This document shows positions 7,931 to 53,328 of a stretch of DNA of 64,000 bases, one piece after another; the first letter of the stretch is position 1; the number at the start of each line of letters is the position of its first letter. The stretch comes from Escherichia coli (GTDB lineage: Bacteria; Pseudomonadota; Gammaproteobacteria; Enterobacterales; Enterobacteriaceae). The translations under genes were made by a program, and so were the position numbers. The notes under the pieces are model-generated. The model worked only from the letters and a program-made list of their open reading frames with translations, had not been told where the DNA came from and did no database searches. The stretch lies in the NCBI RefSeq assembly GCF_044324785.1, contig NZ_CP172127.1. The stretch is one strand, 5' to 3'.

Positions 7931-10483
7931 TCAGAACAATTCCTGTGCCTCGCCATTATCGATAATGGTCGTTCCCACCTCGTGCACCGCCTGTTGTGTC
8001 GGCTGCGTACCTTCGATGAAATACTCTTCGCGGCTGTTGCCACCATTAGCTAACTGCCCGGTGCTGCGATCGATATTCACCGTCACAATACCCGGCGGCG
8101 GCGTCAGCGGCTGCTCCGGCACACCTTCAAGAACGGCTTTCATATAAGCGTCCCATGCAGGCTGGGCACTCTTGGCACCGCCTTCGTAACCTGAGATCTG
8201 ATCTTTAATCGCTCCGGAAGCCGTTGTATGACCGAGATTACGACGGTGATCATCAAAGCCAATCCAGACCGAGGTCACAACGCCCGGACCGTAACCCGAA
8301 AACCACGCATCTTTCGAACTGTTAGTGGTACCGGTTTTCCCGCCGATATCGCGACGCTGCAAATCACGACCTGCACGCCAGCCAGTACCCTGCCAGCCTG
8401 GCTCACCAAAGATATTGGTGTTCAAAGCACTCTTAATCAGGAATGCCAGCGGAGTGTTGATGACGTGCGGCGCGTACTCCTGTGCGCCAGTCTTCGCCAC
8501 TAACGCCTGATTTGCCTGCTCCAGCTGCGGCATTGGTACAGAAACATTCTGCTGCTCGCGGGAGATAGCGACATCTTCAACATCGTTATTTTCCAGCACG
8601 TTCGATTTCTGCGTATCACCGTAAATCACCGGAATATCGCATTCCGGGCAGGCTACTTTCGGTTTCGCTTCGAAAATCACGCCGCCCTGATCGTTTTCAA
8701 TTTTGCTGATAAACCACGGGTCCACCAGGAAGCCGCCGTTCGCCATGACCGCGTAGCCGCGCGCCACCTGCATTGGGGTGAAGGACGCTGAACCCAGCGC
8801 CAGCGATTCGGTGTGGACAATGTTTTGCGCCGGGAAGCCGAAGCGTTGCAGATATTCTGCAGCGTAGTCGACGCCCATCGCCCGCATTGCGCGTACCATC
8901 ACCACGTTTTTCGACTGGCCCAGTCCCTGACGTAAGCGAATTGGACCGGCATACTGCGGTGGTGAGTTCTTCGGCTGCCAGTCAGAACCGGCACCTGCAT
9001 CCCAGCGGGAAATTGGCACATCGTTCAACATACTTGCCAGTGTCAGACCTTTATCCATCGCCGCGGTGTAGAGGAACGGTTTGATGTTGGAACCTACCTG
9101 ACGCAGTGCCTGGGTGGCGCGGTTAAACTTGCTCTGATTGAAATCAAAGCCACCGACCAGCGCCATAACGGCACCGTTTTGCGGATTGATCGACACCAGC
9201 GCCGAGTTCACTTCCGGCACTTGCGCCAGCCACCATGCATCGCCAACCTGACGAACCCAGATTTGCTGACCCGTTTGCAGAACATCGGTCACTTTACGCG
9301 GCGTCGGTCCCTGCTGAGTATCCGAACGGTAAGGACGCGCCCAGCGAACGCCTTCCATACTCAATACGACGGTCGACCCGTCCGCCAGCATCGCCGTCGC
9401 TTCCTGAGGATTGGCGCTGGTGACTGCGGCAGGCAGCAGCGGACCATAGGTCGGCAGCGCCTTCAACGTATCGGTAATCTTGTTGTTATCCCACGCCGAC
9501 TCGCCCACTTTCCACAGCACATTTGCCGGGCCGCGATAGCCGTGGCGCATGTCGTAGTCCAGCACGTTATTACGTACTGCCTGCTGTGCGGCCTGCTGTA
9601 CTTTGCGGGTGATGGTGGTGTAAATGCGATAACCGTCTTCATAGGCACTTTCGCCATAACGGTTATACATCTCCTGGCGCACCATTTCGCTCAGGTACGG
9701 CGCAGAGAAAGCAATCTCCGGCGCGTGATAGTTAGCGTTAATCGCCTCAGTGCGTGTCTGATCGAACTGTTGTTGGGTGATATACCCTTCATCCAGCATC
9801 CGCGACAGCACGACGTTACGCCGCGCGACGGCACGATCCATCGAGTAGAGCGGGTTGAAGGTGGAAGGCGCTTTCGGCAGCCCGGCTATCACCGCCATTT
9901 CGTTCAGCGTCAGTTGGTCGACCGTTTTACCGAAATAGACTTGTGCCGCAGCACCGACACCATAGGCGCGGTAACCGAGGTAAATCTTGTTCAGATAAAG
10001 CTCGAGGATCTCGTCTTTCGTCAGCAACTGTTCAATGCGAATCGCGAGGAAGACTTCCTTAATCTTACGCATCAGCGTGCGTTCTGGACTGAGGAAGAAG
10101 TTTCTCGCCAGCTGCTGGGTAATGGTACTCGCCCCTTGTGACGCGTGGCCGGAGAACAGCGCCACACTTGCCGCACGGAAGATCCCCACCGGGTCAACGC
10201 CGTGATGCTCGTAGAAGCGGCTGTCTTCCGTCGCGATAAAGGCTTTCACCATCTCCGGCGGGATTTGATCCAACGTAACCGGAATACGACGTTTCTCACC
10301 GTATTGAGCGATCAGCTCGCCATCGGCGCTGTAAATCTGCATCGGAATTTGCAGGCGAACATCTTTTAATGTCGCCACATCCGGCAGTTGTGGCTCGATG
10401 TAGCGGTATAGGCCATAAATCGAGCCTGCTCCCAGCAGAATGCAACAGACTGCAAGGATCAAAAAATACTTTACGAACTTCAC
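7931..10483 (-). CDS. mrcA: penicillin-binding protein 1A (bifunctional glycosyltransferase/transpeptidase)
   Basis: ORF track 858 aa; start placed at GTG giving VKFVKYFLILAV... (850 aa); transpeptidase SxxK and glycosyltransferase motifs present. Confidence 0.93.
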   Translation of the reverse strand: MKFVKYFLILAVCCILLGAGSIYGLYRYIEPQLPDVATLKDVRLQIPMQIYSADGELIAQYGEKRRIPVTLDQIPPEMVKAFIATEDSRFYEHHGVDPVGIFRAASVALFSGHASQGASTITQQLARNFFLSPERTLMRKIKEVFLAIRIEQLLTKDEILELYLNKIYLGYRAYGVGAAAQVYFGKTVDQLTLNEMAVIAGLPKAPSTFNPLYSMDRAVARRNVVLSRMLDEGYITQQQFDQTRTEAINANYHAPEIAFSAPYLSEMVRQEMYNRYGESAYEDGYRIYTTITRKVQQAAQQAVRNNVLDYDMRHGYRGPANVLWKVGESAWDNNKITDTLKALPTYGPLLPAAVTSANPQEATAMLADGSTVVLSMEGVRWARPYRSDTQQGPTPRKVTDVLQTGQQIWVRQVGDAWWLAQVPEVNSALVSINPQNGAVMALVGGFDFNQSKFNRATQALRQVGSNIKPFLYTAAMDKGLTLASMLNDVPISRWDAGAGSDWQPKNSPPQYAGPIRLRQGLGQSKNVVMVRAMRAMGVDYAAEYLQRFGFPAQNIVHTESLALGSASFTPMQVARGYAVMANGGFLVDPWFISKIENDQGGVIFEAKPKVACPECDIPVIYGDTQKSNVLENNDVEDVAISREQQNVSVPMPQLEQANQALVAKTGAQEYAPHVINTPLAFLIKSALNTNIFGEPGWQGTGWRAGRDLQRRDIGGKTGTTNSSKDAWFSGYGPGVVTSVWIGFDDHRRNLGHTTASGAIKDQISGYEGGAKSAQPAWDAYMKAVLEGVPEQPLTPPPGIVTVNIDRSTGQLANGGNSREEYFIEGTQPTQQAVHEVGTTIIDNGEAQELF

Positions 10484-10602
10484 TGGAAATTTCCCATTTA
10501 GTTTCATTTGGGCAGTTTATAAACAAACGCGCGGTAGTATAAAGGCAAGCCAGACGCATTGATATACCCGTCAGAGTGACGGGTGATAAGGAGATCATCA
10601 CA

Positions 10603-11382
10603 ATGGCATTTAAGATCTGGCAAATTGGTTTGCATTTACAACAGCAAGAAGCGGTAGCGGTTGCTATCGTGCGGGGCACAAAAGAATGCTTTTTGCAACG
10701 CTGGTGGCGGTTGCCGCTGGAGAACGACATAATCAAAGATGGGCGGGTTGTCGATGCACAGCGGCTGGCTAACACGTTGTTACCGTGGAGTCGCGAACTG
10801 CCGCAGCGTCATCACATTATGTTGGCATTTCCCGCCAGTCGCACATTACAGCGGTCATTTCCACGCCCGTCGATGTCCCTTGGTGAGCGGGAGCAAACGG
10901 CCTGGCTGTCCGGGACGATGGCCCGCGAGCTGGATATGGATCCGGACTCCCTGCGCTTCGATTACAGCGAAGACTCACTCAGTCCCGCCTATAACGTGAC
11001 TGCCGCGCAAAGCAAAGAGCTGGCAACGCTGCTTACTCTGGCAGAAAGGTTGCGTGTTCATGTTAGCGCGATCACCCCGGATGCCAGTGCATTACAGCGA
11101 TTCCTGCCTTTTTTACCTTCTCATCAGCAATGTCTGGCCTGGCGTGATAACGAACAGTGGCTGTGGGCGACGCGCTATAGCTGGGGGCGCAAACTGGCGG
11201 TGGGGATGACTAGCGCGAAGGAGCTGGCGGCAGCGTTATGCGTTGATCCCGAAAGCGTCGCGCTATGTGGCGAAGGCGGATTTGACCCCTGGGAGGCGGT
11301 TTCTGTTCGTCAGCCGCCGCTACCGCCGCCAGGTGGAGACTTTGCCATCGCGCTGGGGCTGGCGCTTGGGAAGGTGTACTGA
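10603..11382 (+). CDS. hofM: PilM/ComA-like type IV pilus assembly protein
   Basis: ORF track 268 aa trimmed to MAFKIWQIG; first gene of five overlapping ORFs. Confidence 0.85.
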   Translation: MAFKIWQIGLHLQQQEAVAVAIVRGTKECFLQRWWRLPLENDIIKDGRVVDAQRLANTLLPWSRELPQRHHIMLAFPASRTLQRSFPRPSMSLGEREQTAWLSGTMARELDMDPDSLRFDYSEDSLSPAYNVTAAQSKELATLLTLAERLRVHVSAITPDASALQRFLPFLPSHQQCLAWRDNEQWLWATRYSWGRKLAVGMTSAKELAAALCVDPESVALCGEGGFDPWEAVSVRQPPLPPPGGDFAIALGLALGKVY

Positions 11383-11921
11383 TGAACCCGCCAATTAATT
11401 TTTTGCCTTGGCGACAGCAACGCCGGACCGCTTTTCTTCGTTTCTGGTTACTGATGTTCGTTGCGCCTCTGCTGCTGGCCGTCGGGATAACGCTAATACT
11501 GCGTCTGACAAGCAACGCCGAAGCACGCGTAGACACTGTTTTGCTTCAGGCGGAACAACAACTCGCCCGCAGCTTACAGATAACGAAACCACGTTTGCTG
11601 GAGCGCCAACAAATTCGTGAGCAGCGTTTGCAAAGGCAGCGCCAGCGACAATTTACCCGCGACTGGCAATCTGCGCTGGAAGCACTGGCGGCGCTTTTAC
11701 CCGAGCACGCCTGGCTGACAACGATAAGCTGGCAGCAGGGAACGCTGGAGATCAAGGGGCTGACAACAAGCATTACCGCGTTAAACGCGCTGGAAACGTC
11801 ACTCCGCCAGGATGCTTTTTTTCATCTCAATCAGCGGGGGGCCACGCAGCAGGATGCGCAGGGACGCTGGCAATTTGAGTATCAGTTAACAAGGAAGGTT
11901 AGCGATGGACATGCTCTTTGA
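11382..11921 (+). CDS. hofN: PilN-like protein
   Basis: ORF track 179 aa with single N-terminal TM segment; start overlaps hofM stop. Confidence 0.85.
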   Translation: MNPPINFLPWRQQRRTAFLRFWLLMFVAPLLLAVGITLILRLTSNAEARVDTVLLQAEQQLARSLQITKPRLLERQQIREQRLQRQRQRQFTRDWQSALEALAALLPEHAWLTTISWQQGTLEIKGLTTSITALNALETSLRQDAFFHLNQRGATQQDAQGRWQFEYQLTRKVSDGHAL

Positions 11922-12345
11922 CTGGTGGTTCGCCGCATCACCCCGCCTCCGCCAGCTTTGCTGGGCATTCTGGTTGATGATGTTAGTTACGCTCATTTTT
12001 CTGTCATCGACACACCAGGGAGAGAGCGACGCATTAATTCGACTACGGGCGAGTCATCACCAGCAGTGGGCCGCACTGTATCGCCTGGTAGACACCACTC
12101 CCTTCAGCGAAGAAAAAACGCTGCCCTTTTCGCCACTGGATTTTCAGTTATCCGGCGCGCAACTGGTTTACTGGCATCCATCCGCGCAGGGAGGTGAGTT
12201 GGCGTTGAAAACGCTGTGGGAAGCAGTGCCGTCGGCATTTACACGGCTGGCAGAGCGCAACGTCAGCGTGAGCCGTTTTTCGTTAAGCGTGGAAGGTGAT
12301 GACCTTTTGTTCACGCTACAACTGGAGACGCCGCATGAGGGTTAA
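11905..12345 (+). CDS. hofO: PilO-like protein
   Basis: ORF track 146 aa; overlaps hofN 3' end. Confidence 0.82.
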   Translation: MDMLFDWWFAASPRLRQLCWAFWLMMLVTLIFLSSTHQGESDALIRLRASHHQQWAALYRLVDTTPFSEEKTLPFSPLDFQLSGAQLVYWHPSAQGGELALKTLWEAVPSAFTRLAERNVSVSRFSLSVEGDDLLFTLQLETPHEG

Positions 12346-12739
12346 ACGCTGGTTGTTGGCAGGTATTGCATTGTGCCTTTTAACCGGTATGCGTGACCCT
12401 TTTAAACCGCCGGAAGATCTATGCCGGATTAGCGAACTTAGCCAGTGGCGCTATCAGGGGATGGTAGGGCGAGGCGAGCGCATCATCGGTGTAATAAAAG
12501 ACGGGCAAAAAAAATGGCGACGGGTGCAGCAAAACGATGTGCTGGAAAACGGCTGGACGATCTTACAGCTGACGCCAGACGCACTAACGCTGGGAACCGG
12601 GACAAACTGCGAACCGCCACACTGGTTGTGGCAACGGCAAGGAGATACAAATGAAGCAATGGATAGCAGCACTACTGTTGATGCTGATACCCGGCGTACA
12701 GGCGGCAAAGCCGCAAAAAGTGACACTGATGGTGGATGA
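12335..12739 (+). CDS. hofP: PilP-like lipoprotein
   Basis: ORF track 147 aa trimmed to MRVKRWLLAGIALCLLTG (lipobox-like LTGM, then C). Confidence 0.8.
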   Translation: MRVKRWLLAGIALCLLTGMRDPFKPPEDLCRISELSQWRYQGMVGRGERIIGVIKDGQKKWRRVQQNDVLENGWTILQLTPDALTLGTGTNCEPPHWLWQRQGDTNEAMDSSTTVDADTRRTGGKAAKSDTDGG

Positions 12740-13889
12740 CGTTCCGGTAGCTCAGGTGTTGCAGGCGCTGGCTGAACAGGAGAAGTTGAACCTGGTGGTG
12801 TCGCCAGACGTCAGCGGTACGGTGTCGTTACATCTAACAGATGTTCCCTGGAAGCAAGCACTACAAACTGTAGTGAAAAGCGCCGGACTGATAACGCGTC
12901 AGGAGGGCAACATTCTCTCGGTGCATTCCGTTGCCTGGCAGAATGACAATATCGCCCGTCAGGAGGCGGAGCAGGCGCGGGCGCAGGCAAATCTGCCGCT
13001 GGAAAATCGCAGTATAACCCTGCAATACGCCGACGCGGGAGAACTGGCGAAAGCCGGGGAGAAGCTACTGAGTGCCAAAGGGAGTATGACCGTCGATAAA
13101 CGCACCAATCGCCTTTTGCTGCGAGATAACAAAACGGCGTTAAGCGCGCTTGAACAGTGGGTAGCGCAAATGGATCTGCCGGTCGGGCAGGTTGAGCTGT
13201 TGGCGCATATTGTCACCATTAATGAAAAAAGTTTGCGTGAGTTAGGCGTGAAATGGACGTTGGCTGATGCGCAACAAGCTGGTGGCGTTGGGCAAGTCAC
13301 CACGCTTGGCAGCGACCTCTCCGTAGCGACGGCGACAACGCATGTCGGTTTTAACATTGGACGCATCAACGGACGTTTACTGGATCTTGAGCTTTCCGCG
13401 CTCGAACAAAAACAGCAGCTGGATATTATCGCCAGTCCGCGTCTGCTGGCCTCTCATCTTCAGCCTGCCAGCATTAAACAGGGGAGCGAAATTCCATATC
13501 AGGTTTCCAGCGGGGAAAGTGGCGCGACGTCGGTGGAATTTAAAGAGGCCGTCCTGGGGATGGAGGTCACGCCCACGGTGTTACAAAAAGGTCGCATCCG
13601 GCTGAAATTACACATCAGCCAGAACGTTCCGGGGCAGGTGCTACAGCAGGCCGATGGCGAAGTGCTGGCGATTGATAAGCAGGAGATCGAAACGCAGGTC
13701 GAGGTCAAAAGCGGAGAAACGTTGGCGCTGGGTGGCATTTTTACCCGTAAAAATAAATCGGGGCAGGATAGCGTACCGTTGCTTGGCGACATTCCCTGGT
13801 TCGGGCAATTATTTCGTCATGACGGAAAAGAAGATGAACGACGCGAGTTAGTGGTGTTTATCACGCCACGACTGGTTTCCAGTGAGTAA
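12651..13889 (+). CDS. hofQ: secretin (PilQ/ComE-like outer-membrane channel)
   Basis: ORF track 412 aa; signal peptide; secretin C-domain motifs (GGIFTRKNKSG...VPLLGDIPWFGQLF). Confidence 0.9.
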   Translation: MKQWIAALLLMLIPGVQAAKPQKVTLMVDDVPVAQVLQALAEQEKLNLVVSPDVSGTVSLHLTDVPWKQALQTVVKSAGLITRQEGNILSVHSVAWQNDNIARQEAEQARAQANLPLENRSITLQYADAGELAKAGEKLLSAKGSMTVDKRTNRLLLRDNKTALSALEQWVAQMDLPVGQVELLAHIVTINEKSLRELGVKWTLADAQQAGGVGQVTTLGSDLSVATATTHVGFNIGRINGRLLDLELSALEQKQQLDIIASPRLLASHLQPASIKQGSEIPYQVSSGESGATSVEFKEAVLGMEVTPTVLQKGRIRLKLHISQNVPGQVLQQADGEVLAIDKQEIETQVEVKSGETLALGGIFTRKNKSGQDSVPLLGDIPWFGQLFRHDGKEDERRELVVFITPRLVSSE

Positions 13890-14289
13890 ACAGCCGTAAA
13901 AGCGGTAATGTTTTTACGCTGAACGTGTTTCATCTATTTGACGCGCGCAGGTATTTAGCATACAAGGAGTACCGATTTGAGAGTTGGTGCTCTTCGCTGC
14001 CTGCGTTCCATGATGATGATTTATCATTCAGGCGGCATTTTGCTGTCTTTTTTACGCTAATCTTACCCGGTGATTTATCGCCAGAGCGGTGGTAGCAAGG
14101 CAGCGCGCTTGCAGCGACCAGATATGCAGGGGGATGGGTGATTTATTCAGTTGCCAAACCCGCTGGAGTATTGAGATAATTTTCAGTCTGACTCTCGCAA
14201 TATCTTATGAGGTTTCAGTTCATGTCCTGCGGCGCTCTCTGAGCGAAGCGGGTTTATCATTAACGAATAGTCTTAGTAGTACCGAAAAA

Positions 14290-14811
14290 ATGGCAGAGAA
14301 ACGCAATATCTTTCTGGTTGGGCCTATGGGTGCCGGAAAAAGCACTATTGGGCGCCAGTTAGCTCAACAACTCAATATGGAATTTTACGATTCCGATCAA
14401 GAGATTGAGAAACGAACCGGAGCTGATGTGGGCTGGGTTTTCGATTTAGAAGGCGAAGAAGGCTTCCGCGATCGCGAAGAAAAGGTCATCAATGAGTTGA
14501 CCGAGAAACAGGGTATTGTGCTGGCTACTGGCGGCGGCTCTGTGAAATCCCGCGAAACGCGTAACCGTCTTTCCGCACGTGGCGTTGTCGTTTATCTTGA
14601 AACGACCATCGAAAAGCAACTTGCACGCACGCAGCGTGATAAAAAACGCCCGTTGCTGCACGTTGAAACACCGCCGCGTGAAGTTCTGGAAGCGTTGGCC
14701 AATGAACGCAATCCGCTGTATGAAGAGATTGCCGACGTGACCATTCGTACTGATGATCAAAGCGCTAAAGTGGTCGCAAACCAGATTATTCACATGCTGG
14801 AAAGCAACTAA
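14290..14811 (+). CDS. aroK: shikimate kinase I
   Basis: [22 protein letters not shown]-loop; ORF track entry (14089) begins upstream, conserved ATG at 14290. Confidence 0.95.
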
Positions 14812-14867
14812 TTCTGGCTTTATATACACTCGTCTGCGGGTACAGTAATTAAGGTGGATGTCGCGTT

Positions 14868-15956
14868 ATGGAGAGGATTGTCGTTACTCTCGGGGAACGT
14901 AGTTACCCAATTACCATCGCATCTGGTTTGTTTAATGAACCAGCTTCATTCTTACCGCTGAAATCGGGCGAGCAGGTCATGTTGGTCACCAACGAAACCC
15001 TGGCTCCTCTGTATCTCGATAAGGTCCGCGGCGTACTTGAACAGGCGGGTGTTAACGTCGATAGCGTTATCCTCCCTGACGGCGAGCAGTATAAAAGCCT
15101 GGCTGTACTCGATACCGTCTTTACGGCGTTGTTACAAAAGCCGCATGGTCGCGATACTACGCTGGTGGCGCTTGGCGGCGGCGTAGTGGGCGATCTGACC
15201 GGCTTTGCGGCGGCGAGTTATCAGCGCGGTGTACGTTTCATTCAAGTCCCGACGACGTTGCTGTCGCAGGTCGATTCCTCCGTTGGCGGCAAAACTGCGG
15301 TCAACCATCCCCTCGGTAAAAACATGATTGGCGCGTTCTACCAGCCTGCTTCAGTGGTGGTGGATCTCGACTGTCTGAAAACGCTTCCCCCGCGTGAGTT
15401 AGCGTCGGGGCTGGCAGAAGTCATCAAATACGGCATTATTCTTGACGGTGCGTTTTTCAACTGGCTGGAAGAGAATCTGGATGCGTTGTTGCGTCTGGAC
15501 GGTCCGGCAATGGCGTACTGTATTCGCCGTTGTTGTGAACTGAAGGCAGAAGTTGTCGCCGCCGACGAGCGCGAAACCGGGTTACGTGCTTTACTGAATC
15601 TGGGACACACCTTTGGTCATGCCATTGAAGCTGAAATGGGGTATGGCAATTGGTTACACGGTGAATCGGTCGCTGCGGGTATGGTGATGGCGGCGCGGAC
15701 GTCGGAACGTCTCGGGCAGTTTAGTTCTGCCGAAACGCAGCGTATTATAACCCTGCTCACGCGGGCTGGGTTACCGGTCAATGGGCCGCGCGAAATGTCT
15801 GCGCAGGCGTATTTACCGCATATGCTGCGTGACAAGAAAGTCCTTGCGGGAGAGATGCGCTTAATTCTTCCGTTGGCAATTGGTAAGAGTGAAGTTCGCA
15901 GCGGCGTTTCGCACGAGCTTGTTCTTAACGCCATTGCCGATTGTCAATCAGCGTAA
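14868..15956 (+). CDS. aroB: 3-dehydroquinate synthase
   Basis: ORF track 362 aa; NAD-binding GGGVVGD motif. Confidence 0.95.
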
Positions 15957-20735: not shown

Positions 20736-20762
20736 AAAAACCGGGGAAACCCGGTTTTTTTT
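20736..20762 (+). terminator. rho-independent terminator of the aroK...trpS transcription unit
   Basis: aaaaa ccggg gaaa cccgg tttttttt, 16 nt after the trpS stop. Confidence 0.88.
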
Positions 20763-20880
20763 ATCCTCATTTGCAATAATCCGAAAAAATGTGAAGCGCC
20801 TCGCCGTTTCCACATCTCGCAGTTGCCACTTATCTTCATTTTTATGAAGATATAAATATTCACTTTATTGAAAATTTACT

Positions 20881-21786
20881 ATGCGTCGAACGTTTATCAA
20901 AAAAGAAGGCGTCGTCATCACGACACTGGCCCGTTATTTGTTGGGTGAAAAGTGCGGTAATCGACTGAAAACCATAGATGAGCTGGCAACTGAATGCCGT
21001 TCATCCGTTGGCCTGACGCAGGCCGCGTTGAAAACGCTGGAATCAAGCGGAGCGATACGGATTGAACGCCGTGGGCGCAATGGCAGTTATCTGGTGGAAA
21101 TGGATAACAAAGCATTGCTGAGTCATGTGGATATCAACAATGTGGTGTGCGCGATGCCCTTGCCCTATACCCGTTTGTACGAAGGCCTGGCGAGCGGATT
21201 GAAAGCTCAGTTTGATGGCATTCCTTTTTACTATGCGCATATGCGCGGCGCGGATATTCGCGTGGAGTGTTTACTTAACGGCGTGTATGACATGGCGGTT
21301 GTTTCCCGACTGGCGGCGGAAAGTTATCTCACGCAAAAAGGCTTATGCCTCGCGCTGGAGTTGGGGCCGCACACCTACGTTGGCGAGCACCAGTTGATTT
21401 GCCGTAAAGGCGAGTCCGCAAACGTGAAGCGTGTGGGGCTGGATAACCGTTCGGCGGATCAGAAAATCATGACCGATGTTTTTTTTGGCGATACGGATGT
21501 GGAACGAGTCGATCTCTCCTATCACGAGAGTTTACAACGCATTGTTAAAGGCGATGTTGATGCGGTTATCTGGAACGTGGTGGCGGAAAACGAACTGACC
21601 ATGCTGGGATTAGAAGCGACGCCGCTCACAGATGATCCGCGATTTTTACAGGCCACCGAAGCCGTGGTCCTGACGCGAGTCGATGATTACCCAATGCAAC
21701 AACTGCTGCGTGCAGTTGTTGATAAACATGCCCTGCTTGCCCATCAACAACGCGTGGTGAGTGGGGAACAGGAACCCAGTTATTAA
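20881..21786 (+). CDS. yhfZ: putative transcriptional regulator of the yhf cluster
   Basis: ORF track 301 aa; first gene of the co-directional yhfZ...yhfS block. Confidence 0.8.
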   Translation: MRRTFIKKEGVVITTLARYLLGEKCGNRLKTIDELATECRSSVGLTQAALKTLESSGAIRIERRGRNGSYLVEMDNKALLSHVDINNVVCAMPLPYTRLYEGLASGLKAQFDGIPFYYAHMRGADIRVECLLNGVYDMAVVSRLAAESYLTQKGLCLALELGPHTYVGEHQLICRKGESANVKRVGLDNRSADQKIMTDVFFGDTDVERVDLSYHESLQRIVKGDVDAVIWNVVAENELTMLGLEATPLTDDPRFLQATEAVVLTRVDDYPMQQLLRAVVDKHALLAHQQRVVSGEQEPSY

Positions 21787-21802
21787 ACGAAAGGCATCTG
21801 AT

Positions 21803-22165
21803 ATGGAAACCAGACTCAACCTGCTTTGCGATGCAGGCGTTATTGATAAGGACATCTGCAAAGGCATGATGCAGGTCGTCAAGGTACTGGAAACAGAGTG
21901 CCATCTGCCGGTGCGCAGTGAGCAAGGAACGATGGCAATGACACATATGGCGAGTGCACTGATGCGCAGTCGCCGTGGTGAAGAAATAGAGCCGCTGGAC
22001 GCCGAATTGCTGGCAGAACTGGCGCAATCCAGCCACTGGCAAGCCGTTGTGCAATTGCATCAGGTGTTGTTGAAGGAATTTACACTGGAAGTTAACCCGT
22101 GTGAAGAAGGCTATTTGCTGGCCAACCTTTATGGATTATGGATGGCTGCTAACGAAGAGGTTTGA
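21803..22165 (+). CDS. yhfY: small PRD-domain-like regulatory protein (family assignment from recollection)
   Basis: ORF track 134 aa trimmed to METRLNLLCD. Confidence 0.75.
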   Translation: METRLNLLCDAGVIDKDICKGMMQVVKVLETECHLPVRSEQGTMAMTHMASALMRSRRGEEIEPLDAELLAELAQSSHWQAVVQLHQVLLKEFTLEVNPCEEGYLLANLYGLWMAANEEV

Positions 22166-22195
22166 AGCTCCCGACAAATCCACGTCGCACAACCT

Positions 22196-22219
22196 AAATA
22201 TTCAAAAAAATGAATATTT
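22196..22219. promoter_or_regulatory. perfect 9-6-9 inverted repeat (candidate operator or RNA hairpin) in the yhfY-yhfX gap
   Basis: AAATATTCA aaaaaa TGAATATTT, 30 nt upstream of the yhfX ATG. Confidence 0.4.
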
Positions 22220-22248
22220 AATTCAAGGAACAGAAACGAGGCAACAAG

Positions 22249-23412
22249 ATGTTTGTAGAAGCATTGAAACGCCAGAACCCGGCGCTAATTTCCGCCGCAC
22301 TAAGCTTGTGGCAAAAGGGCAAGATCGCCCCGGACAGCTGGGTGATCGACGTGGATCAGATACTGGAAAACGGTAAGCGGCTGATTGAGACGGCGCGGCT
22401 TTACGGCATTGAACTGTATCTGATGACCAAGCAGTTTGGTCGTAATCCGTGGCTGGCGGAAAAACTGCTGCCATTAGGCTACAGCGGCATTGTGGCGGTG
22501 GATTACAAAGAGGCGCGAGTCATGCGCCGCGCCGGTTTGCCGGTGGCGCATCAGGGGCATCTGGTACAAATCCCTTGTCATCAGGTTGCTGACGCCGTTG
22601 CACAGGGCACCGACGTCATCACCGTGTTTACTCTCGACAAAGCGCGGGAAGTTTCTGCGGCAGCGGTGAAGGCCGGACGTGTGCAGTCTGTGCTGCTCAA
22701 AGTTTATAGCGACGATGATTTTCTTTATCCGGGGCAGGAGAGCGGTTTTGTACAGCATTCGCTGCACGAGGTGGTTGCTGAAATTAAGAAACTGCCGGGG
22801 TTGCATTTAGCTGGACTAACCCATTTCCCTTGCCTGCTTTGGGATGAGGCTGCCGGGAAAGTTTTGCCGACACCGAATCTTCACACGCTGATACAGGCAC
22901 GGGATCAACTGGCGAAATCTGGTATTGCGATTGAGCAACTGAACGCACCTTCTGCGACCAGCTGCACTTCGCTGCCATTGCTGGCGGAATACGGTGTGAC
23001 TCATGCCGAACCCGGTCATGCGCTGACGGGCACTATTCCGGCAAACCAGCAGGGCGATCAGCCTGAACGTATCGCGATGCTCTGGTTAAGTGAAATCTCC
23101 CATCATTTCCGTGGCGACAGCTACTGCTACGGCGGCGGTTACTACCGTCGTGGTCATGCGCAACATGCGCTGGTGTTTACGCCAGAAAATCAAAAGATTA
23201 CTGAAACCAATCTCAAAGCCGTGGATGACAGCAGTATCGACTACACCCTGCCGCTGGCAGGTGAGTTTCCGGTAAGCAGTGCAGTAGTGCTCTGTTTTCG
23301 CACGCAGATTTTTGTCACCCGTAGCGATGTGGTGTTGCTGTCCGGTATTCACCGTGGCGAACCAGAAATCGTCGGTCGTTATGACAGTCTTGGAAACTCT
23401 CTGGGGGCGTAA
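22249..23412 (+). CDS. yhfX: alanine-racemase-fold PLP-dependent protein, substrate unknown
   Basis: ORF track 387 aa. Confidence 0.82.
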
Positions 23413-24638
23413 TGGCGCGATTTGTGGTGTTAGTGATTGATAGCTTTGGCGTAGGGGCAATGAAAGATGTCACGTTGGTGCGTCCGCAGGATGCCGGGGC
23501 GAATACCTGTGGTCACATCCTGAGCCAGTTGCCGCATTTGCAGCTACCAGCGCTGGAGAAGCTGGGGCTAATCAACGCATTGGGTTATGCACCAGGTGAT
23601 ATGCAGCCGTCAGACTCCGCAACTTGGGGTGTGGCAGAGCTGCAACATGAAGGTGGCGATACCTTTATGGGGCATCAGGAAATTTTAGGCACGCGCCCGT
23701 TACCGCCGCTGCGGATGCCCTTTCGTGATGTGATTGACCGTGTTGAGCAGGCATTAGTTTCCGCTGGCTGGCTGGTTGAGCGTCGTGGCGATGATCTGCA
23801 ATTTCTGTGGGTCAATCAGGCGGTTGCGATTGGCGATAATCTCGAGGCGGATTTAGGCCAGGTCTATAACATCACCGCCAATCTCTCTGTGATCTCTTTT
23901 GACGACGCAATCAAAATTGGTCGTATTGTGCGTGAGCAGGTACAGGTCGGTCGGGTCATTACATTTGGTGGCCTGTTAACCGACAGTCAACGCATTCTCG
24001 ATGCCGCAGAAAGCAAAGAAGGGCGCTTTATTGGTATCAATGCGCCGCGTTCTGGCGCTTATGACAACGGCTTCCAGGTCGTGCATATGGGCTACGGTGT
24101 CGATGAGAAAGTGCAGGTGCCGCAAAAACTGTATGAAGCGGGCGTGCCAACCGTGCTGGTGGGTAAGGTGGCGGATATTGTCAGCAATCCTTATGGCGTG
24201 AGCTGGCAAAACCTGGTGGATAGCCAACGGATTATGGATATCACTCTCAACGAATTTAACACCCATCCGACGGCGTTTATTTGTACCAATATCCAGGAAA
24301 CCGACCTCGCTGGTCATGCAGAAGACGTCGCACGTTATGCCGAACGTTTGCAGGTCGTTGACCGTAACCTTGCCCGGCTTATTGAGGCGATGCAGCCAGA
24401 TGATTGCCTGGTCGTGATGGCGGATCACGGTAACGATCCGACCATTGGTCACAGCCACCATACCCGCGAAGTGGTGCCAGTGCTGGTTTATCAGCAAGGG
24501 ATGGTCGCTACGCAGCTCGGTGTGCGCACCACGCTTTCTGATGTGGGGGCTACCGTGTGTGAATTTTTCCGTGCGCCACCGCCACAAAATGGTCGCTCTT
24601 TTCTTTCCTCCCTCCGGTTTGCAGGAGACACCCTATGA
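23412..24638 (+). CDS. yhfW: phosphopentomutase-like metalloenzyme, putative mutase
   Basis: ORF track 408 aa; N-terminus [17 protein letters not shown] resembles the DeoB-type metal-binding start. Confidence 0.82.
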
Positions 24639-25513
24639 GTATTGATCCGACGGGTTACACCCTCGCCCATGAGCATCTGCATATTGATCTCTCCGGCTTT
24701 AAAAACAACGTGGACTGCCGCCTTGATCAGTATGCGTTCATTTGCCAGGAGATGAACGACCTGATGGCCCAGGGCGTGCGTAATGTGATTGAGATGACCA
24801 ACCGTTACATGGGGCGAAATGCGCAATTTATGCTCGATGTGATGCACGAAACTGGCATCAACGTGGTGGCCTGTACCGGTTATTACCAGGATGCGTTTTT
24901 CCCGCAACATGTGGCGACCCGCAGCGTACAGGAACTGGCGCAGGAGATGGTCGATGAAATTGATCAGGGTATCGATGGCACGGAACTGAAAGCCGGGATC
25001 ATCGCGGAGATCGGCTCCAGCGAAGGGAAGATTACGCCGCTGGAAGAGAAGGTGTTTATTGCCGCCGCGCTGGCACATAACCAGACCGGACGCCCGATCT
25101 CCACGCATACGTCGTTCAGCACGATGGGGCTGGAACAACTGGCTCTGTTGCAAGCCCACGGAGTTAATCTTTCGCGCGTCACCGTTGGTCACTGCGATCT
25201 GAAAGACAACCTCGACAACATTTTGAAGATGATCGATCTCGGCGCGTATGTGCAGTTCGACACCATCGGCAAGAACAGTTACTACCCGGACGAAAGGCGC
25301 ATTGCGATGCTCCACGCGCTACGTGACCGTGGTTTGCTGAACCGCGTCATGCTGTCGATGGATATTACGCGCCGCTCCCATTTAAAAGCCAACGGTGGTT
25401 ATGGCTATGACTATTTATTGACCACCTTTATTCCGCAATTGCGCCAGTCAGGATTCAGTCAGGCCGATGTGGATGTGATGTTACGTGAAACTCCCTCTCA
25501 ATTTTTCCAATAA
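24635..25513 (+). CDS. php: phosphotriesterase-homology protein (amidohydrolase superfamily)
   Basis: ORF track 292 aa; N-terminal HxH metal motif ([14 protein letters not shown]). Confidence 0.9.
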
Positions 25514-25523
25514 GGACAGACTC

Positions 25524-25877
25524 ATGAAAAAGATTGGTGTTGCAGGCTTACAGCGTGAGCAGATTAAAAAAACCATTGAAGCGACGGCTCCTGGCTGTTT
25601 TGAAGTTTTCATTCACAACGACATGGAAGCGGCAATGAAAGTCAAATCCGGGCAACTGGATTACTACATCGGCGCGTGTAATACCGGTGCGGGCGCGGCA
25701 TTGTCGATTGCCATCGCGGTGATTGGCTATAACAAAAGTTGCACCATTGCCAAACCAGGCATTAAAGCGAAAGACGAACATATCGCCAAAATGATCGCCG
25801 AAGGGAAAGTGGCGTTTGGGCTTTCCGTTGAGCACGTCGAACACGCGATTCCGATGCTGATTAACCATCTGAAATAA
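25524..25877 (+). CDS. yhfU: small conserved protein of unknown function
   Basis: ORF track 130 aa trimmed to MKKIGVAGLQ (117 aa). Confidence 0.78.
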   Translation: MKKIGVAGLQREQIKKTIEATAPGCFEVFIHNDMEAAMKVKSGQLDYYIGACNTGAGAALSIAIAVIGYNKSCTIAKPGIKAKDEHIAKMIAEGKVAFGLSVEHVEHAIPMLINHLK

Positions 25878-25888
25878 AAGGCACGACT

Positions 25889-27193
25889 ATGGATCTGTAT
25901 ATTCAGATTATCGTGGTGGCGTGCCTGACGGGTATGACATCGCTTCTGGCGCATCGCTCGGCGGCCGTTTTTCATGACGGTATCCGCCCGATCCTGCCGC
26001 AACTGATTGAAGGCTATATGAACCGTCGCGAGGCGGGGAGTATCGCTTTTGGTCTGAGCATTGGTTTTGTGGCTTCGGTGGGGATCTCTTTTACCCTGAA
26101 AACCGGACTGCTCAACGCATGGTTACTCTTTCTTCCTACCGATATCCTCGGCGTACTGGCGATAAACAGCCTGATGGCGTTTGGTCTTGGCGCTATCTGG
26201 GGCGTGTTGATCCTTACTTGCCTGTTACCGGTAAACCAGCTGCTGACCGCGCTACCGGTGGATGTATTAGGTAGCCTGGGGGAATTAAGCTCGCCGGTGG
26301 TTTCAGCTTTTGCACTGTTCCCGTTGGTGGCGATTTTCTACCAGTTTGGCTGGAAGCAAAGTCTGATCGCCGCCGTGGTGGTACTGATGACCCGTGTGGT
26401 GGTAGTGCGCTATTTCCCGCATCTCAATCCGGAATCCATCGAAATCTTTATTGGCATGGTGATGCTGCTGGGGATCGCGATAACTCACGACCTGCGTCAT
26501 CGTGATGAAAATGATATTGATGCCAGCGGGCTTTCGGTGTTTGAAGAACGCACGTCGCGGATTATCAAAAACTTACCGTATATCGCTATTGTCGGGGCGC
26601 TGATTGCCGCCGTTGCCAGCATGAAGATTTTTGCTGGCAGTGAAGTGTCGATCTTCACACTGGAGAAAGCATATTCCGCAGGCGTAACGCCGGAACAATC
26701 ACAAACGCTGATTAACCAGGCAGCTCTGGCGGAATTTATGCGCGGGCTGGGTTTTGTACCGTTGATTGCCACCACCGCGTTAGCCACTGGTGTGTATGCA
26801 GTTGCGGGCTTTACCTTTGTTTATGCGGTGGGCTATCTCTCGCCGAATCCGATGGTTGCAGCGGTATTAGGCGCAGTGGTTATTTCGGCGGAAGTCCTGC
26901 TGCTTCGTTCGATCGGCAAATGGCTGGGGCGCTATCCGTCGGTGCGTAATGCGTCAGATAACATCCGTAACGCCATGAATATGCTGATGGAAGTGGCGTT
27001 GCTGGTCGGTTCGATTTTCGCAGCAATTAAAATGGCGGGTTATACCGGATTTTCTATCGCAGTTGCCATTTACTTCCTCAACGAATCCCTGGGCCGTCCG
27101 GTACAGAAAATGGCGGCACCGGTCGTGGCAGTAATGATCACCGGTATTCTGCTGAATGTTCTTTACTGGTTTGGCCTGTTCGTTCCGGCTTAA
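25889..27193 (+). CDS. yhfT: polytopic inner-membrane protein (putative transporter)
   Basis: ORF track 434 aa, hydrophobic throughout. Confidence 0.85.
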   Translation: MDLYIQIIVVACLTGMTSLLAHRSAAVFHDGIRPILPQLIEGYMNRREAGSIAFGLSIGFVASVGISFTLKTGLLNAWLLFLPTDILGVLAINSLMAFGLGAIWGVLILTCLLPVNQLLTALPVDVLGSLGELSSPVVSAFALFPLVAIFYQFGWKQSLIAAVVVLMTRVVVVRYFPHLNPESIEIFIGMVMLLGIAITHDLRHRDENDIDASGLSVFEERTSRIIKNLPYIAIVGALIAAVASMKIFAGSEVSIFTLEKAYSAGVTPEQSQTLINQAALAEFMRGLGFVPLIATTALATGVYAVAGFTFVYAVGYLSPNPMVAAVLGAVVISAEVLLLRSIGKWLGRYPSVRNASDNIRNAMNMLMEVALLVGSIFAAIKMAGYTGFSIAVAIYFLNESLGRPVQKMAAPVVAVMITGILLNVLYWFGLFVPA

Positions 27194-27204
27194 GGAAGGC
27201 ACCT

Positions 27205-28290
27205 ATGAAGACGTATCCTTTGCAAAGCCTGACGCTTATTGAGGCGCAGCAAAAGCAGTTTGCGCTGGTGGACACGATTTGCCGCCATTTTCCCGGCAGC
27301 GAGTTTCTTACCCGCGGGGATTTGGGCTTAACGCCGGGGCTGAATCAACCGCGCATTACCCAGCGAGTGGAACAGGTGCTGGCTGATGCATTTCACGCAC
27401 AGGCTGCGGCGCTGGTACAGGGCGCGGGTACTGGCGCGATCCGTGCGGCGTTGGCGGCTTTGCTCATACCGGGGCAGCGTCTTCTGGTGCATGACGCGCC
27501 TGTTTACCCGACGACTCAGGTCATTATTGAGCAGATGGGGCTGACGCTTATTACTGCTAATTTCAATGACCTGTCGGCACTTAAGCAGGTCGTCGAAGAG
27601 CAACAACCGGATGCGGCTCTGGTGCAGCATACGCGCCAGCAGCCGCAGGACGGGTACATTCTGGCAGATGTGCTGGCAACGTTGCGCTCGGCTGGCGTTC
27701 CTGCATTAACCGATGACAACTATGCGGTGATGAAGGTAGCGCGAATTGGCTGCGAATGCGGGGCAAATGTCTCGACTTTTTCCTGCTTCAAGCTGTTTGG
27801 GCCGGAGGGTGTTGGCGCGGTGGTAGGCGATGCCGATGTTATTAGTCGGATTCGCGCCACGCTCTACTCCGGCGGCAGCCAGATTCAGGGCGCTCAGGCG
27901 TTGGAAGTCTTGCGTGGGCTGGTGTTTGCGCCAGTGATGCACGCGGTGCAGGCGGGGGTATCTGAACGGTTGCTGGCCTTGCTCAACGGTGGTGCAGTTC
28001 CGGAAGTGAAAAGCGCCGTCATTGCCAATGCACAGTCGAAGGTGTTGATTGTCGAGTTTCATCAGCCGATTGCCGCCAGAGTGCTGGAAGAGGCGCAAAA
28101 GCGCGGTGCCTTGCCTTACCCGGTTGGTGCAGAGTCGAAATATGAAGTTCCGCCACTTTTTTATCGACTTTCCGGAACGTTTCGCCAGGCGAATCCGCAA
28201 CTCGAACATTACGCGATTCGTATTAACCCAAATCGCAGCGGTGAAGAGACGGTGCTGCGGATTTTGCGTGAGAGTATTGCGAGTATTTAA
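27205..28290 (+). CDS. yhfS: conserved protein of unknown function (possibly PLP-dependent; uncertain)
   Basis: ORF track 361 aa; last gene of the yhf block. Confidence 0.8.
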   Translation: MKTYPLQSLTLIEAQQKQFALVDTICRHFPGSEFLTRGDLGLTPGLNQPRITQRVEQVLADAFHAQAAALVQGAGTGAIRAALAALLIPGQRLLVHDAPVYPTTQVIIEQMGLTLITANFNDLSALKQVVEEQQPDAALVQHTRQQPQDGYILADVLATLRSAGVPALTDDNYAVMKVARIGCECGANVSTFSCFKLFGPEGVGAVVGDADVISRIRATLYSGGSQIQGAQALEVLRGLVFAPVMHAVQAGVSERLLALLNGGAVPEVKSAVIANAQSKVLIVEFHQPIAARVLEEAQKRGALPYPVGAESKYEVPPLFYRLSGTFRQANPQLEHYAIRINPNRSGEETVLRILRESIASI

Positions 28291-28326
28291 TGCTGGATAG
28301 CCCCGTTCGGCAATCAAGCTAAATTC

Positions 28327-46428: not shown

Positions 46429-47061
46429 TTAACGAGTGCCGTAAACGACGATGGTTTTACCGTGTGCGGAGATCAGGTTCTGATCTTCCAGCATCTTCAG
46501 AATGCGTCCCACGGTTTCACGAGAACAGCCAACAATCTGACCGATTTCCTGACGGGTAATTTTGATTTGCATACCGTCCGGGTGAGTCATAGCATCCGGT
46601 TGTTTTGCCAGGTTCAGCAGAGTCTGTGCAATGCGGCCCGTCACGTCGAGGAACGCCAGGTTGCCCACTTTCTCTGAAGTGACTTGCAGGCGACGCGCCA
46701 TCTGTGCAGACAGACGCATCAGAATGTCCGGGTTTACCTGAATCAATTGGCGAAATTTTTTGTACGAAATTTCAGCCACTTCACAGGCGGTTTTCGCACG
46801 TACCCATGCGCTACGTTCCTGGCCCTCTTCAAACAGGCCCAGTTCGCCAATAAAATCACCCTGATTCAGATAGGAGAGGATCATTTCTTTACCCTCTTCG
46901 TCTTTGATCAGCACTGCCACAGAGCCTTTAACGATGTAGTACAGCGTTTCCGCTTTTTCACCCTGGTGAATAAGCGTGCTCTTGGATGGGTACTTATGAA
47001 TGTGGCAATGAGACAAGAACCATTCGAGAGTCGGGTCTGTTTGCGGTTTGCCAAGCACCAT
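46429..47061 (-). CDS. crp: cAMP receptor protein
   Basis: ORF track 210 aa, [50 protein letters not shown]... Confidence 0.98.
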
Positions 47062-50074: not shown

Positions 50075-50982
<908 letters not shown>

Positions 50983-51438
50983 TCCAGGAGATGCTCCTGC
51001 ATGGCTTTCAGATATGCATTTTCTGCGCGAAGATAACGCAGCTCATTCTTCATCTCTTCCGGCGTCATGTTTGCCTCGTTTTCATGGGTATCATCAGAAC
51101 GGGTCATGCTTTTCTCCTTCCTGCGCCTGATAAAGGCCTCATTACCAGATTTGCGGTAGCCTTTTATCCAGTTTTTAACCGTGTTGTGGCTGGGAATGTT
51201 AAACCGGGCAGCTACCCGGGGTAGAGACTCAGAATGCCCGAGAGCATAAAGAACCACGCAAAGTTTATCTTCAGGAGAATAGCTACGCTTGTGTCTGCAA
51301 TCCAGTGCCCGAGGACCGTGAAGAAGAAAAAGATTAATCCAGTGTGAGAGGCTGGTGTGAGAAAGTTGAAAGAGTTTTGCCGTAGAAATGATGCCTGCAT
51401 GACCAGCCAGGTAATGATTTACAGCGGCAAGTTTTACT

Positions 51439-53328
51439 TCAAATGAATGTTTCATAAACTGCACCTTCAGATGTCAGATTATGTCCAACATTTGGGGTGC
51501 AGTTCATGGCTTGCTGTTGCAGGCATGCGGTCAGTTCTGCTTTACGGCTTTGATCGTACAGTTCGCTGTCGCCGAGTTTCTCTTCCGCCTGCGCCAGCTG
51601 TGCGTTCAGCTTCTCCATCTCTTTTTCCAGACGGGCAATCTCTTTACGCAGTGGCTGGGTTTGCGCACGCAGCTCCGCTTCCCGACGCTTCTGATCTTTA
51701 CGTGCCTGGGCGCTGTTCGCGTTCTCTTTTGGCGAGTCGTCGGCCTGGTTTTCCTGCTTTTGTACGTCGCTCAACCACTGTTGATAATCTTCCAGATCGC
51801 CGTCGAACGGTTCGACTTTACGATCGTGAACCAGGTAGAGATCGTCAGTGGTGGAACGCAGCAAATGACGGTCGTGCGAGACGACAACCAGCGCGCCTTC
51901 GAACTCGATTAATGCTTCGGTGAGAGCCTGACGCATGTCGAGGTCAAGGTGGTTGGTCGGTTCGTCGAGCAGCAGCAGATTCGGACGCTGCCAGACGATT
52001 AATGCCAGCACCAGGCGGGCTTTTTCCCCACCGGAAAAGCGGCGCGTTTCTTCCGTCACTTTATCGCCCTGGAAACCAAAGCCGCCGAGGTAGTCACGCA
52101 GTTTTTGTTCCAGTTCCTGCGGCGCTAAACGTGCCAGATGTTGAATAGGCGATTCGTCGGCGCGCAGGTATTCCAGTTGATGCTGGGCGAAGTAGCCGAG
52201 CTTGATCCCTTTCGCCAGATCAATTTCACCGCTGACTGGCGCAAGTTCGCCGGCTAACAGTTTGATTAATGTCGATTTACCCGCGCCGTTGCGGCCTAAC
52301 AGACCAATGCGCGAGCCGGGGACCAGATTCAGTTTAATCGAGTCGAGAATAATGCGATCACCATAGCCTGCGCTGACTTTTTCCATCTTTAATAACGGAT
52401 TAGGCAGGCTTTCCGGCGCGCGGAAGCTAAAACGAAACGGGTTGTCAACGTGCGCGGGGGCAATCAGCTCCATACGCTCGAGCATCTTAATGCGGCTCTG
52501 GGCCTGCTTCGCTTTGGTGGCTTTGGCACGGAAACGGTCGATATAACTTTGCAGATGCGCCACGCGTTCCTGCTGGCTTTCGTACATCGCTTGTTGCTGC
52601 GCCAGACGGGTGGCGCGCTGCACTTCAAACGAACTGTAGTTGCCGGTGTACTCGAACATGCTTTGTTGTTCGATATGAATAATTTTATCAACGATCGGAT
52701 CGAGGAAGTCGCGGTCGTGAGAGATCAGGATCAGCGTGCCCTGATAGCTCTTCAGCCATTTTTCCAGCCAGATAACGGCATCGAGATCGAGGTGGTTAGT
52801 CGGTTCGTCGAGCAGCAGCAAGTCTGAACGGCAAATCAGCGCCTGGGCAAGGTTAAGACGCATACGCCAGCCCCCGGAAAAATCACTTACCGGGCGCTCC
52901 AGTTGTTCATTGCTGAAACCGAGGCCGTGCAGCAGGCTGGCGGCGCGGGAGCGAATACTCCATGCGTCGATAGCATCCAGCTTGCCATGAATGGTCGCAA
53001 TGGCGTGCCCGTCGTTACGTTCGTTGGCGTCGTGTAGCTGCGCTTCCAGTTGACGATATTCACGGTCGCCGTCAATGACATATTCCAGCGCCGCTTGCGG
53101 TAACGCCGGCGTTTCCTGATTCACCCACGCCAGTTGCCAGCTTCCCGGAAAGGTGTAGCTGCCGCCGTCGGCGCTGATTTCATTTTTCAGCAATGCCAGC
53201 AGGGTAGATTTACCACAGCCGTTTTTACCCACCAGGCCGACTTTCTGCCCGGGGTTGATGGTGGCGGTGGCATTATCCAGCAGGACGCGCACGCCGCGAC
53301 GAATTTGTAACGAGGAGAAAACAATCAT
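51439..53328 (-). CDS. yheS: ABC-F ATPase YheS with the 3' end interrupted by the IS: 607 native residues fused to 22 IS-encoded residues
   Basis: ORF track 629 aa; two ABC cassettes (Walker A GKNGCGKST and GRNGAGKST, signature LSGG); the reading frame crosses the IS boundary at 51506/51507 and stops inside the IS. Confidence 0.9.
   Translation of the reverse strand: MIVFSSLQIRRGVRVLLDNATATINPGQKVGLVGKNGCGKSTLLALLKNEISADGGSYTFPGSWQLAWVNQETPALPQAALEYVIDGDREYRQLEAQLHDANERNDGHAIATIHGKLDAIDAWSIRSRAASLLHGLGFSNEQLERPVSDFSGGWRMRLNLAQALICRSDLLLLDEPTNHLDLDAVIWLEKWLKSYQGTLILISHDRDFLDPIVDKIIHIEQQSMFEYTGNYSSFEVQRATRLAQQQAMYESQQERVAHLQSYIDRFRAKATKAKQAQSRIKMLERMELIAPAHVDNPFRFSFRAPESLPNPLLKMEKVSAGYGDRIILDSIKLNLVPGSRIGLLGRNGAGKSTLIKLLAGELAPVSGEIDLAKGIKLGYFAQHQLEYLRADESPIQHLARLAPQELEQKLRDYLGGFGFQGDKVTEETRRFSGGEKARLVLALIVWQRPNLLLLDEPTNHLDLDMRQALTEALIEFEGALVVVSHDRHLLRSTTDDLYLVHDRKVEPFDGDLEDYQQWLSDVQKQENQADDSPKENANSAQARKDQKRREAELRAQTQPLRKEIARLEKEMEKLNAQLAQAEEKLGDSELYDQSRKAELTACLQQQAMNCTPNVGHNLTSEGAVYETFI

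Follow-up and report, generated by a model that had tools for sequence, protein, structure and literature searches.

The pilMNOPQ genes of Pseudomonas aeruginosa, Myxococcus xanthus, Thermus thermophilus and Vibrio cholerae and the comABCDE genes of Haemophilus influenzae encode five types of protein in the same order, and this order is also found in the hofMNOPQ operon of Escherichia coli K-12 (b3395-b3391; formerly yrfD, yrfC, yrfB, yrfA and hofQ). Regulation via CRP-S sites and Sxy is a further feature that K-12 hof shares with H. influenzae comA-E (PMC1635313). Here, we focus on positions 10603-13889 of a 64-kb stretch of E. coli DNA (contig NZ_CP172127.1), which is referred to as the window in the following. 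This region very likely represents the chromosomal hofMNOPQ operon of E. coli, which is the enterobacterial version of pilMNOPQ/comABCDE and supplies two parts of a type IVa pilus for DNA uptake, the alignment subcomplex across the envelope and the secretin of the outer membrane. HofM, HofN, HofP and HofQ match their pilMNOPQ/comABCDE counterparts at the level of fold or family. The operon is part of the core gene content of E. coli and has been known for some 25 years, and its intact state is the rule. The present comparison adds that the call is right to the base, that the regulatory fragment is unchanged and that the labels PilM, PilP and PilO refer to fold or position; apart from these points, the result amounts to annotation.

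The operon shows no structural difference from K-12 hofMNOPQ: genes, order, strands, lengths, overlaps and flanks are the same. With the start codons of RefSeq and K-12, hofM (10603-11382, plus strand, as are all five genes) encodes a predicted cytoplasmic PilM-like protein of 259 amino acids with an actin fold, followed by hofN (11382-11921; 179 amino acids, bitopic inner-membrane PilN homolog), hofO (11905-12345; 146 amino acids, bitopic inner-membrane protein in the position of PilO), hofP (12335-12739; 134 amino acids, periplasmic, resembling PilP and the homology region (HR) domain of GspC) and hofQ (12651-13889; 412 amino acids, outer-membrane secretin of the PilQ class). The respective proteins differ from their K-12 MG1655 counterparts by 7, 10, 9, 4 and 4 residues (34 substitutions in total, 93-99% amino acid identity per protein). 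All five open reading frames (ORFs) begin with ATG and end in a single terminal stop at the length of b3395-b3391. Consecutive genes overlap by 1 nt (hofM/hofN, TGATG), 17 nt (hofN/hofO), 11 nt (hofO/hofP) and 89 nt (hofP/hofQ), and a purine-rich Shine-Dalgarno-like motif lies 5-9 nt before each start. As in K-12, the operon is preceded by the divergent mrcA (7931-10483, minus strand) and followed by aroK (14290-14811) and aroB. An earlier note on this DNA had placed the operon at 10603-13889, which coincides exactly with the start codon of hofM and the stop codon of hofQ. Its description of five overlapping genes with intact frames is borne out by the ORF table, the K-12 lengths and the single terminal stops, and the gene identities and order it gave agree with the K-12 comparison and the family matches.

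The matches of the Hof proteins to curated families range from E=2.8e-10 (PilN) to E=1.2e-257 (HofQ) and are far past chance. Moreover, the topology follows the expected pattern, with a soluble HofM, one hydrophobic stretch each in HofN and HofO, and N-terminal export signals in HofP and HofQ. At the sequence level, no evidence contradicts the identification as hofMNOPQ. A weak terminator-like hairpin (13893-13906, plus strand; 5-bp stem and T-rich tail) is located 4 nt past the hofQ stop and is a consensus match only. As the region contains 3 terminator-like sites compared to 4.8 +/- 2.3 in shuffled sequences, the hairpin is not evidence of function. An Rfam scan detected no RNA families in the window.

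HofQ is the best-defined component and, by its domain and family matches, is unambiguously a PilQ-class secretin of the type IVa pilus/competence kind. The Pfam domains STN (N0), Secretin_N (N3) and Secretin each score over their cut-offs. The NCBIfam model NF007851 ("DNA uptake porin HofQ") is matched with 854 bits (cut-off 598) and the PilQ model TIGR02515 with 446 bits (cut-off 284), and the GspD and SctC models stay under their cut-offs. Among known structures, HofQ finds the competence secretin PilQ of V. cholerae (6w6m, E=3.2e-74) and HofQ of Aggregatibacter actinomycetemcomitans (2y3m, E=1.3e-11). The N-terminus of HofQ (MKQWIAALLLMLIPGVQA) resembles a signal peptide. HofQ does not have an AMIN domain, and its alignment to V. 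cholerae PilQ begins at residue 158. Type IVa secretins with zero AMIN domains are a known minority (27/197), and the domain is not defining (PMC7545093).

HofM, HofN, HofO and HofP are matched by no NCBIfam model, and PDB searches with the single sequences gave no meaningful match. HofN is recognized by Pfam PilN (PF05137, 40.5 bits, cut-off 22.8). A single hydrophobic stretch within residues 15-45 fits one membrane span and follows a short N-terminus, MNPPINFLPWR, which presumably resembles the N-terminal peptide of PilN that is bound by PilM. PilM binds the first 8 residues of PilN (PMC6325625). The predicted structure of HofM fits PilM best and shows an actin-like ATPase fold. HofM alone does not reach the gathering threshold of Pfam PilM_2 (PF11104), and its only Pfam match is T2SSL with 17.9 bits, under the cut-off of 25.5. 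PilM_2 is matched by 20 of the 28 HofM orthologs at E<=0.01 (best 1.5e-6), and the HofM family profile finds PilM in the PDB at E=0.14. A comparison of the HofM family with E. coli GspL by hhalign was uninformative (probability 7%).

HofP matches its own family only in Pfam, and a PDB search with the HofP family profile found nothing. The predicted structure is of moderate quality (predicted local distance difference test, pLDDT, 75-87 in the core; disordered tail) and fits best a β-sandwich HR domain of the PilP/GspC type, i.e. the class that binds the secretin N0 domain. The conserved junction in HofP reads LTG-MRDPF. Within the hofP/hofQ overlap (12650-12739), residues 106-111 of HofP (NEAMDS) show little or no variation among 18 orthologs despite the predicted disorder of the tail (107-134), and their codons share DNA with the start codon and signal peptide of hofQ in another frame. 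The conservation of NEAMDS thus probably reflects dual coding rather than a function in HofP.

HofO is the weakest assignment. The protein matches Pfam PF25319 ("HofO EspM-like domain") with 89 bits, a label that concerns the C-terminal domain, and its single hydrophobic stretch (residues 15-36) fits a membrane span. The gene is third in the M-N-O-P-Q order, also in a relative with a 30%-identical HofO. T2SSM, the family of GspM, which is the counterpart in the type II secretion system (T2SS), is matched by 14 of 52 HofO family members (best E 1.6e-6). A word-indexed search with HofO reached only sequences labeled Escherichia. An exhaustive phmmer search yielded 112 representatives, all 140-160 amino acids long, and did not reach PilO.

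Transcription of the K-12 operon is under control of CRP and Sxy. A 126-bp fragment upstream of K-12 yrfD (hofM) is predicted to contain two CRP-S sites and is weakly bound by CRP, and Sxy raises yrfD expression 16-fold with a strict need for CRP and cyclic AMP (cAMP; PMC1635313). We placed this fragment by means of the primers used for electrophoretic mobility shift assays (EMSA) by Cameron and Redfield, 2006 (PMC1635313). Both primers match the window exactly (10327-10346 and 10431-10452), so that the regulatory fragment is positioned at 10327-10452 (plus strand), 150-275 nt upstream of the hofM ATG. The fragment is 100% identical to K-12, and the sole difference within the 303 nt before hofM (302/303 nt identical) is found at 10310, outside the fragment. 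It lies wholly within the 5' coding region of mrcA, a divergent gene of an essential pathway that encodes PBP1a. The fragment thus has a regulatory and a coding role at once.

The sites themselves are not apparent from motif searches. TGCGA-N6-TCGCA with up to 2 mismatches has no match upstream of hofM and occurs 33 times across the window compared to 47 times in shuffled sequences. A loose scan for the CRP core gave 10419-10434 as best candidate (6/8 scored positions), and reading by eye suggested a second one at about 10338-10353; both are at chance level. A promoter scan found no sigma-70-like promoter for hofM, and promoter and terminator matches were not enriched over shuffled sequences. 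The lack of a sigma-70-like promoter is expected of an activator-dependent promoter. Of the trans-acting factors, CRP is required by the hofM promoter together with Sxy and cAMP (PMC1635313). An intact crp gene is located on the minus strand of the window (46429-47061); it differs from K-12 crp at 7 nt but at no amino acid. The sxy gene lies outside the window.

Based on these data, we propose the following working of the operon. Transcription would start upstream of hofM, within the mrcA 5' coding region, from a promoter that has almost no activity under laboratory conditions until cAMP-CRP acts on it together with Sxy/TfoX, as shown in K-12 for the fragment of identical sequence. The five cistrons would be translated from one mRNA, possibly coupled via the overlaps of 1 to 89 nt. 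PilM-PilN structures suggest that cytoplasmic HofM clamps the short cytoplasmic N-terminus of HofN. HofN and HofO might pair in the periplasm, and, by analogy to GspC-GspD and PilP-PilQ, the HR β-sandwich of HofP might bind the N0 domain of HofQ. Multimeric HofQ is expected to form a gated outer-membrane channel as seen in PilQ structures. A PpdD pilus would extend and retract through this channel; HofB/HofC and the minor pilins, which build the pilus, are encoded at other loci. Retraction would bring double-stranded DNA into the periplasm, from where it might be moved inward or degraded as a nutrient.

Experimental data from K-12 are in line with this mechanism. Insertion of a kanamycin cassette (hofQ::kan) abolishes sxy-dependent DNA uptake (PMC3330819). 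A synthetic operon comprising hofB, hofC, hofMNOPQ, ppdAB-ygdB-ppdC and gspO leads to shearable PpdD pili on the cell surface (bioRxiv 10.1101/856302). Growth on DNA has been reported to need homologs of competence genes, according to the summary given in PMC3330819. The earlier note had described the apparatus as cryptic, with proposed roles in DNA uptake or the use of DNA as a nutrient, and as established rather than novel, in agreement with PMC1635313 and PMC3330819.

Alternatively, the main product of the same machine might be a type IV pilus for adhesion or virulence, of the PpdD/HcpA ("haemorrhagic coli pilus") type, with importance for colonization and persistence rather than for the uptake of DNA or growth on it. 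This role is compatible with DNA uptake and is possible, though we consider it rather doubtful as the main function. The surface PpdD pili assembled by hofMNOPQ and its partners (10.1101/856302) would fit such a role. Furthermore, hofQ deletion in uropathogenic E. coli UTI89 and the double deletion of hofQ and yheF in CFT073 impair kidney colonization at day 7 and reduce efflux from bladder cells approximately 2-fold (PMC2649431). However, the promoter is a member of the Sxy/CRP-S competence regulon (PMC1635313), and among direct loss-of-function phenotypes, only the loss of DNA uptake is linked to a mechanism (PMC3330819).

Several observations weigh against hofMNOPQ as a functional DNA-uptake apparatus of the PilMNOPQ type. 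First, the operon is necessary but not sufficient for sxy-dependent DNA uptake, and at least eight further loci are required. The ppdD-hofBC and ppdAB-ygdB-ppdC loci, a prepilin peptidase, ComEA/ComEC homologs and sxy are all absent from the 64-kb window; K-12 gspO is located about 4 kb beyond the point aligned with the window end. The statement in the earlier note that intactness means the strain retains the capacity for DNA uptake thus goes too far, as crp is the only partner gene inside the window. Second, PpdD pilin is made by 0 of 72 strains of the E. coli reference (ECOR) collection, and no natural condition is known to induce the operon strongly, even in K-12 with all loci intact (PMC3330819). 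The physiological role is thus still under debate. Third, the proteins deviate from their counterparts. HofM comprises 259 residues, approximately 80-95 fewer than the PilM proteins of solved structure (336-355 residues), to which 234-243 residues align. PilP is a lipoprotein, whereas 0 of 18 HofP family members carry a lipobox ([LVI][ASTVI][GAS]C) within their 35 N-terminal residues. Pfam PilO (PF04350) matches 0 of 52 HofO family members, a PDB search with the HofO family profile gave no match, and hhalign of the HofO family against E. coli GspM was uninformative (probability 4%). Finally, hofO changes fastest of the five genes, with a ratio of non-synonymous to synonymous substitution rates (dN/dS) of 0.69 relative to K-12, a value based on small counts (13 nt differences).

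Since the Pfam PilO, PDB profile and hhalign searches were all empty, HofO is linked to PilO indirectly, by position, topology and the connection to GspM, toward which it leans. Of the labels that the earlier note had attached to the proteins, PilN (by its Pfam match) and the secretin hold, PilM and PilP apply at the level of fold only, and PilO finds no direct match and reflects position and topology. The shorter HofM and the HofP without a lipobox point to a reduced subcomplex in which not every PilMNOP interaction need hold. Residues 1-169 of HofM align to residues 36-214 of M. xanthus PilM, which leaves 90 residues for the C-terminal half compared to about 180 in PilM. Because the length deficit falls in the C-terminal half, the 2B lobe is probably missing, and the HofM model shows no insertion after the third strand of the second lobe. 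A HofM without subdomain 2B would perhaps also lack nucleotide (ATP) binding.

Taken further, the Hof subcomplex might not just be a PilMNOP of diverged sequence but a structurally reduced variant leaning toward the T2SS, with a HofM devoid of 2B, a HofP that is anchored or released via a signal other than that of a lipoprotein, and a HofO that resembles GspM more than PilO. We regard this as unlikely. If true, the mechanism of such a variant could be closer to that of a pseudopilus piston than to that of a classical retractile pilus, which could help to explain poor DNA uptake and rare piliation in E. coli.

The distribution of the DNA-uptake operon was analyzed with a 3.6-kb query around hofMNOPQ against 5426 complete RefSeq E. 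coli genomes, counting matches that cover at least 80% of the query length. The locus is found in 5425 of them with 95-100% identity, and its annotation as hofM-Q is without exception. The matches total 5,428, one of which is on a record labeled as plasmid, and one of the 5,426 genomes has no match. RefSeq likewise labels hofM-Q on the near-identical DNA of strain N3 and the 99%-identical DNA of strain 042. Orthologs of the same lengths are present in Salmonella, Citrobacter and other Enterobacteriaceae with conserved gene order and overlaps.

To the extent that dN/dS can be read from 8-27 differences per gene (Nei-Gojobori, relative to K-12), counts so small that the values are indicative only, hofQ (0.064) appears constrained like its housekeeping neighbors gph, dam, damX, aroB, mrcA and igaA (0.02-0.11). 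The four small Hof proteins seem to evolve faster yet under constraint, with hofN at 0.20, hofM at 0.22, hofP at 0.29 and all values including that of hofO below 1. Seven further neighbors, trpS, rpe, aroK, nudE, yrfG, hslR and hslO, show zero non-synonymous changes relative to K-12.

These data bear on the idea that the operon is a functionless relic whose frames are intact because decay has not yet occurred. The operon is essentially silent in standard culture (PMC1635313, PMC3330819), the non-synonymous rate in hofM, N, O and P is 2-10 times that of the housekeeping neighbors, with hofO at a dN/dS of 0.69, and databases contain many truncated or fused variants of HofM, HofO and HofP. However, the five frames are intact at K-12 lengths, the locus is present in 5425/5426 genomes and keeps its order and overlaps in other Enterobacteriaceae, hofQ (dN/dS 0.064) resembles the housekeeping neighbors, and experimental phenotypes are on record (PMC3330819, PMC2649431). 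Constraint, near-universal presence and orthologs of the same length argue against a decaying relic, and we reject this very improbable explanation. A role of the hof genes in protein export by a system resembling type II secretion is already disfavored and is rejected as hardly credible. HofQ and HofM fit PilQ and PilM distinctly better than components of GspC/L/M/D, no pseudopilin, ATPase or platform genes are adjacent to hof, and E. coli's own GspL and GspM show no significant profile match to HofM and HofO.

The nearest genome at the hof locus is that of strain N3 (NZ_CP031609.1), which is identical over 8538-14986 apart from one base in each of two G runs. G6 at 11836-11841 in hofN is G5 in N3, and G4 at 14892-14895 in aroB is G3. 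Due to these single-G losses, RefSeq flags hofN and aroB of N3 as frameshifted. These two homopolymer deletions, one of which affects the biosynthetic gene aroB, most likely stem from errors in the N3 assembly and not from true pseudogenization or phase variation. In the window, the frames of hofN and aroB are open; hence, the N3 frameshifts are irrelevant to it. Over the first 25 kb of the window, no complete RefSeq E. coli genome exceeds 99.0% identity, and the source lineage is therefore not represented in this collection. Yet a 6.4-kb block that runs from within mrcA across the hof operon and aroK into the beginning of aroB matches N3. An N3-like block in an otherwise diverged 25 kb suggests a mosaic, i.e. 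recombinant, history.

The window as a whole is collinear with K-12 from 3,533,353 down to 3,470,617 at 95.7-98.5% identity except for one insertion of 1,432 bp. Nucleotide divergence from K-12 is approximately 2.7% at the hof locus compared to roughly 1.8% in the surrounding 20 kb. The yhfZ-yhfS cluster (20738-28306) is only 95.7% identical to K-12 versus about 98% elsewhere in the window. The product of yhgE (915-2639) differs from K-12 at 41 amino acids (dN/dS 0.25), a number far above those of its neighbors. The only break in collinearity is a 1,432-bp copy of IS1397 (IS3 family; 50075-51506) with imperfect inverted ends of 25 nt, which shares 99.8% identity with those of E. coli 042 and others. 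The element interrupts yheS, the gene of an ABC-F protein, near codon 607 of 637, so that the last 31 residues are replaced by 23 residues encoded by the insertion sequence. IS1397 is known for targeting the loops of REP/BIME (repetitive extragenic palindrome/bacterial interspersed mosaic element) sequences, and its insertion in a coding sequence is slightly unusual.

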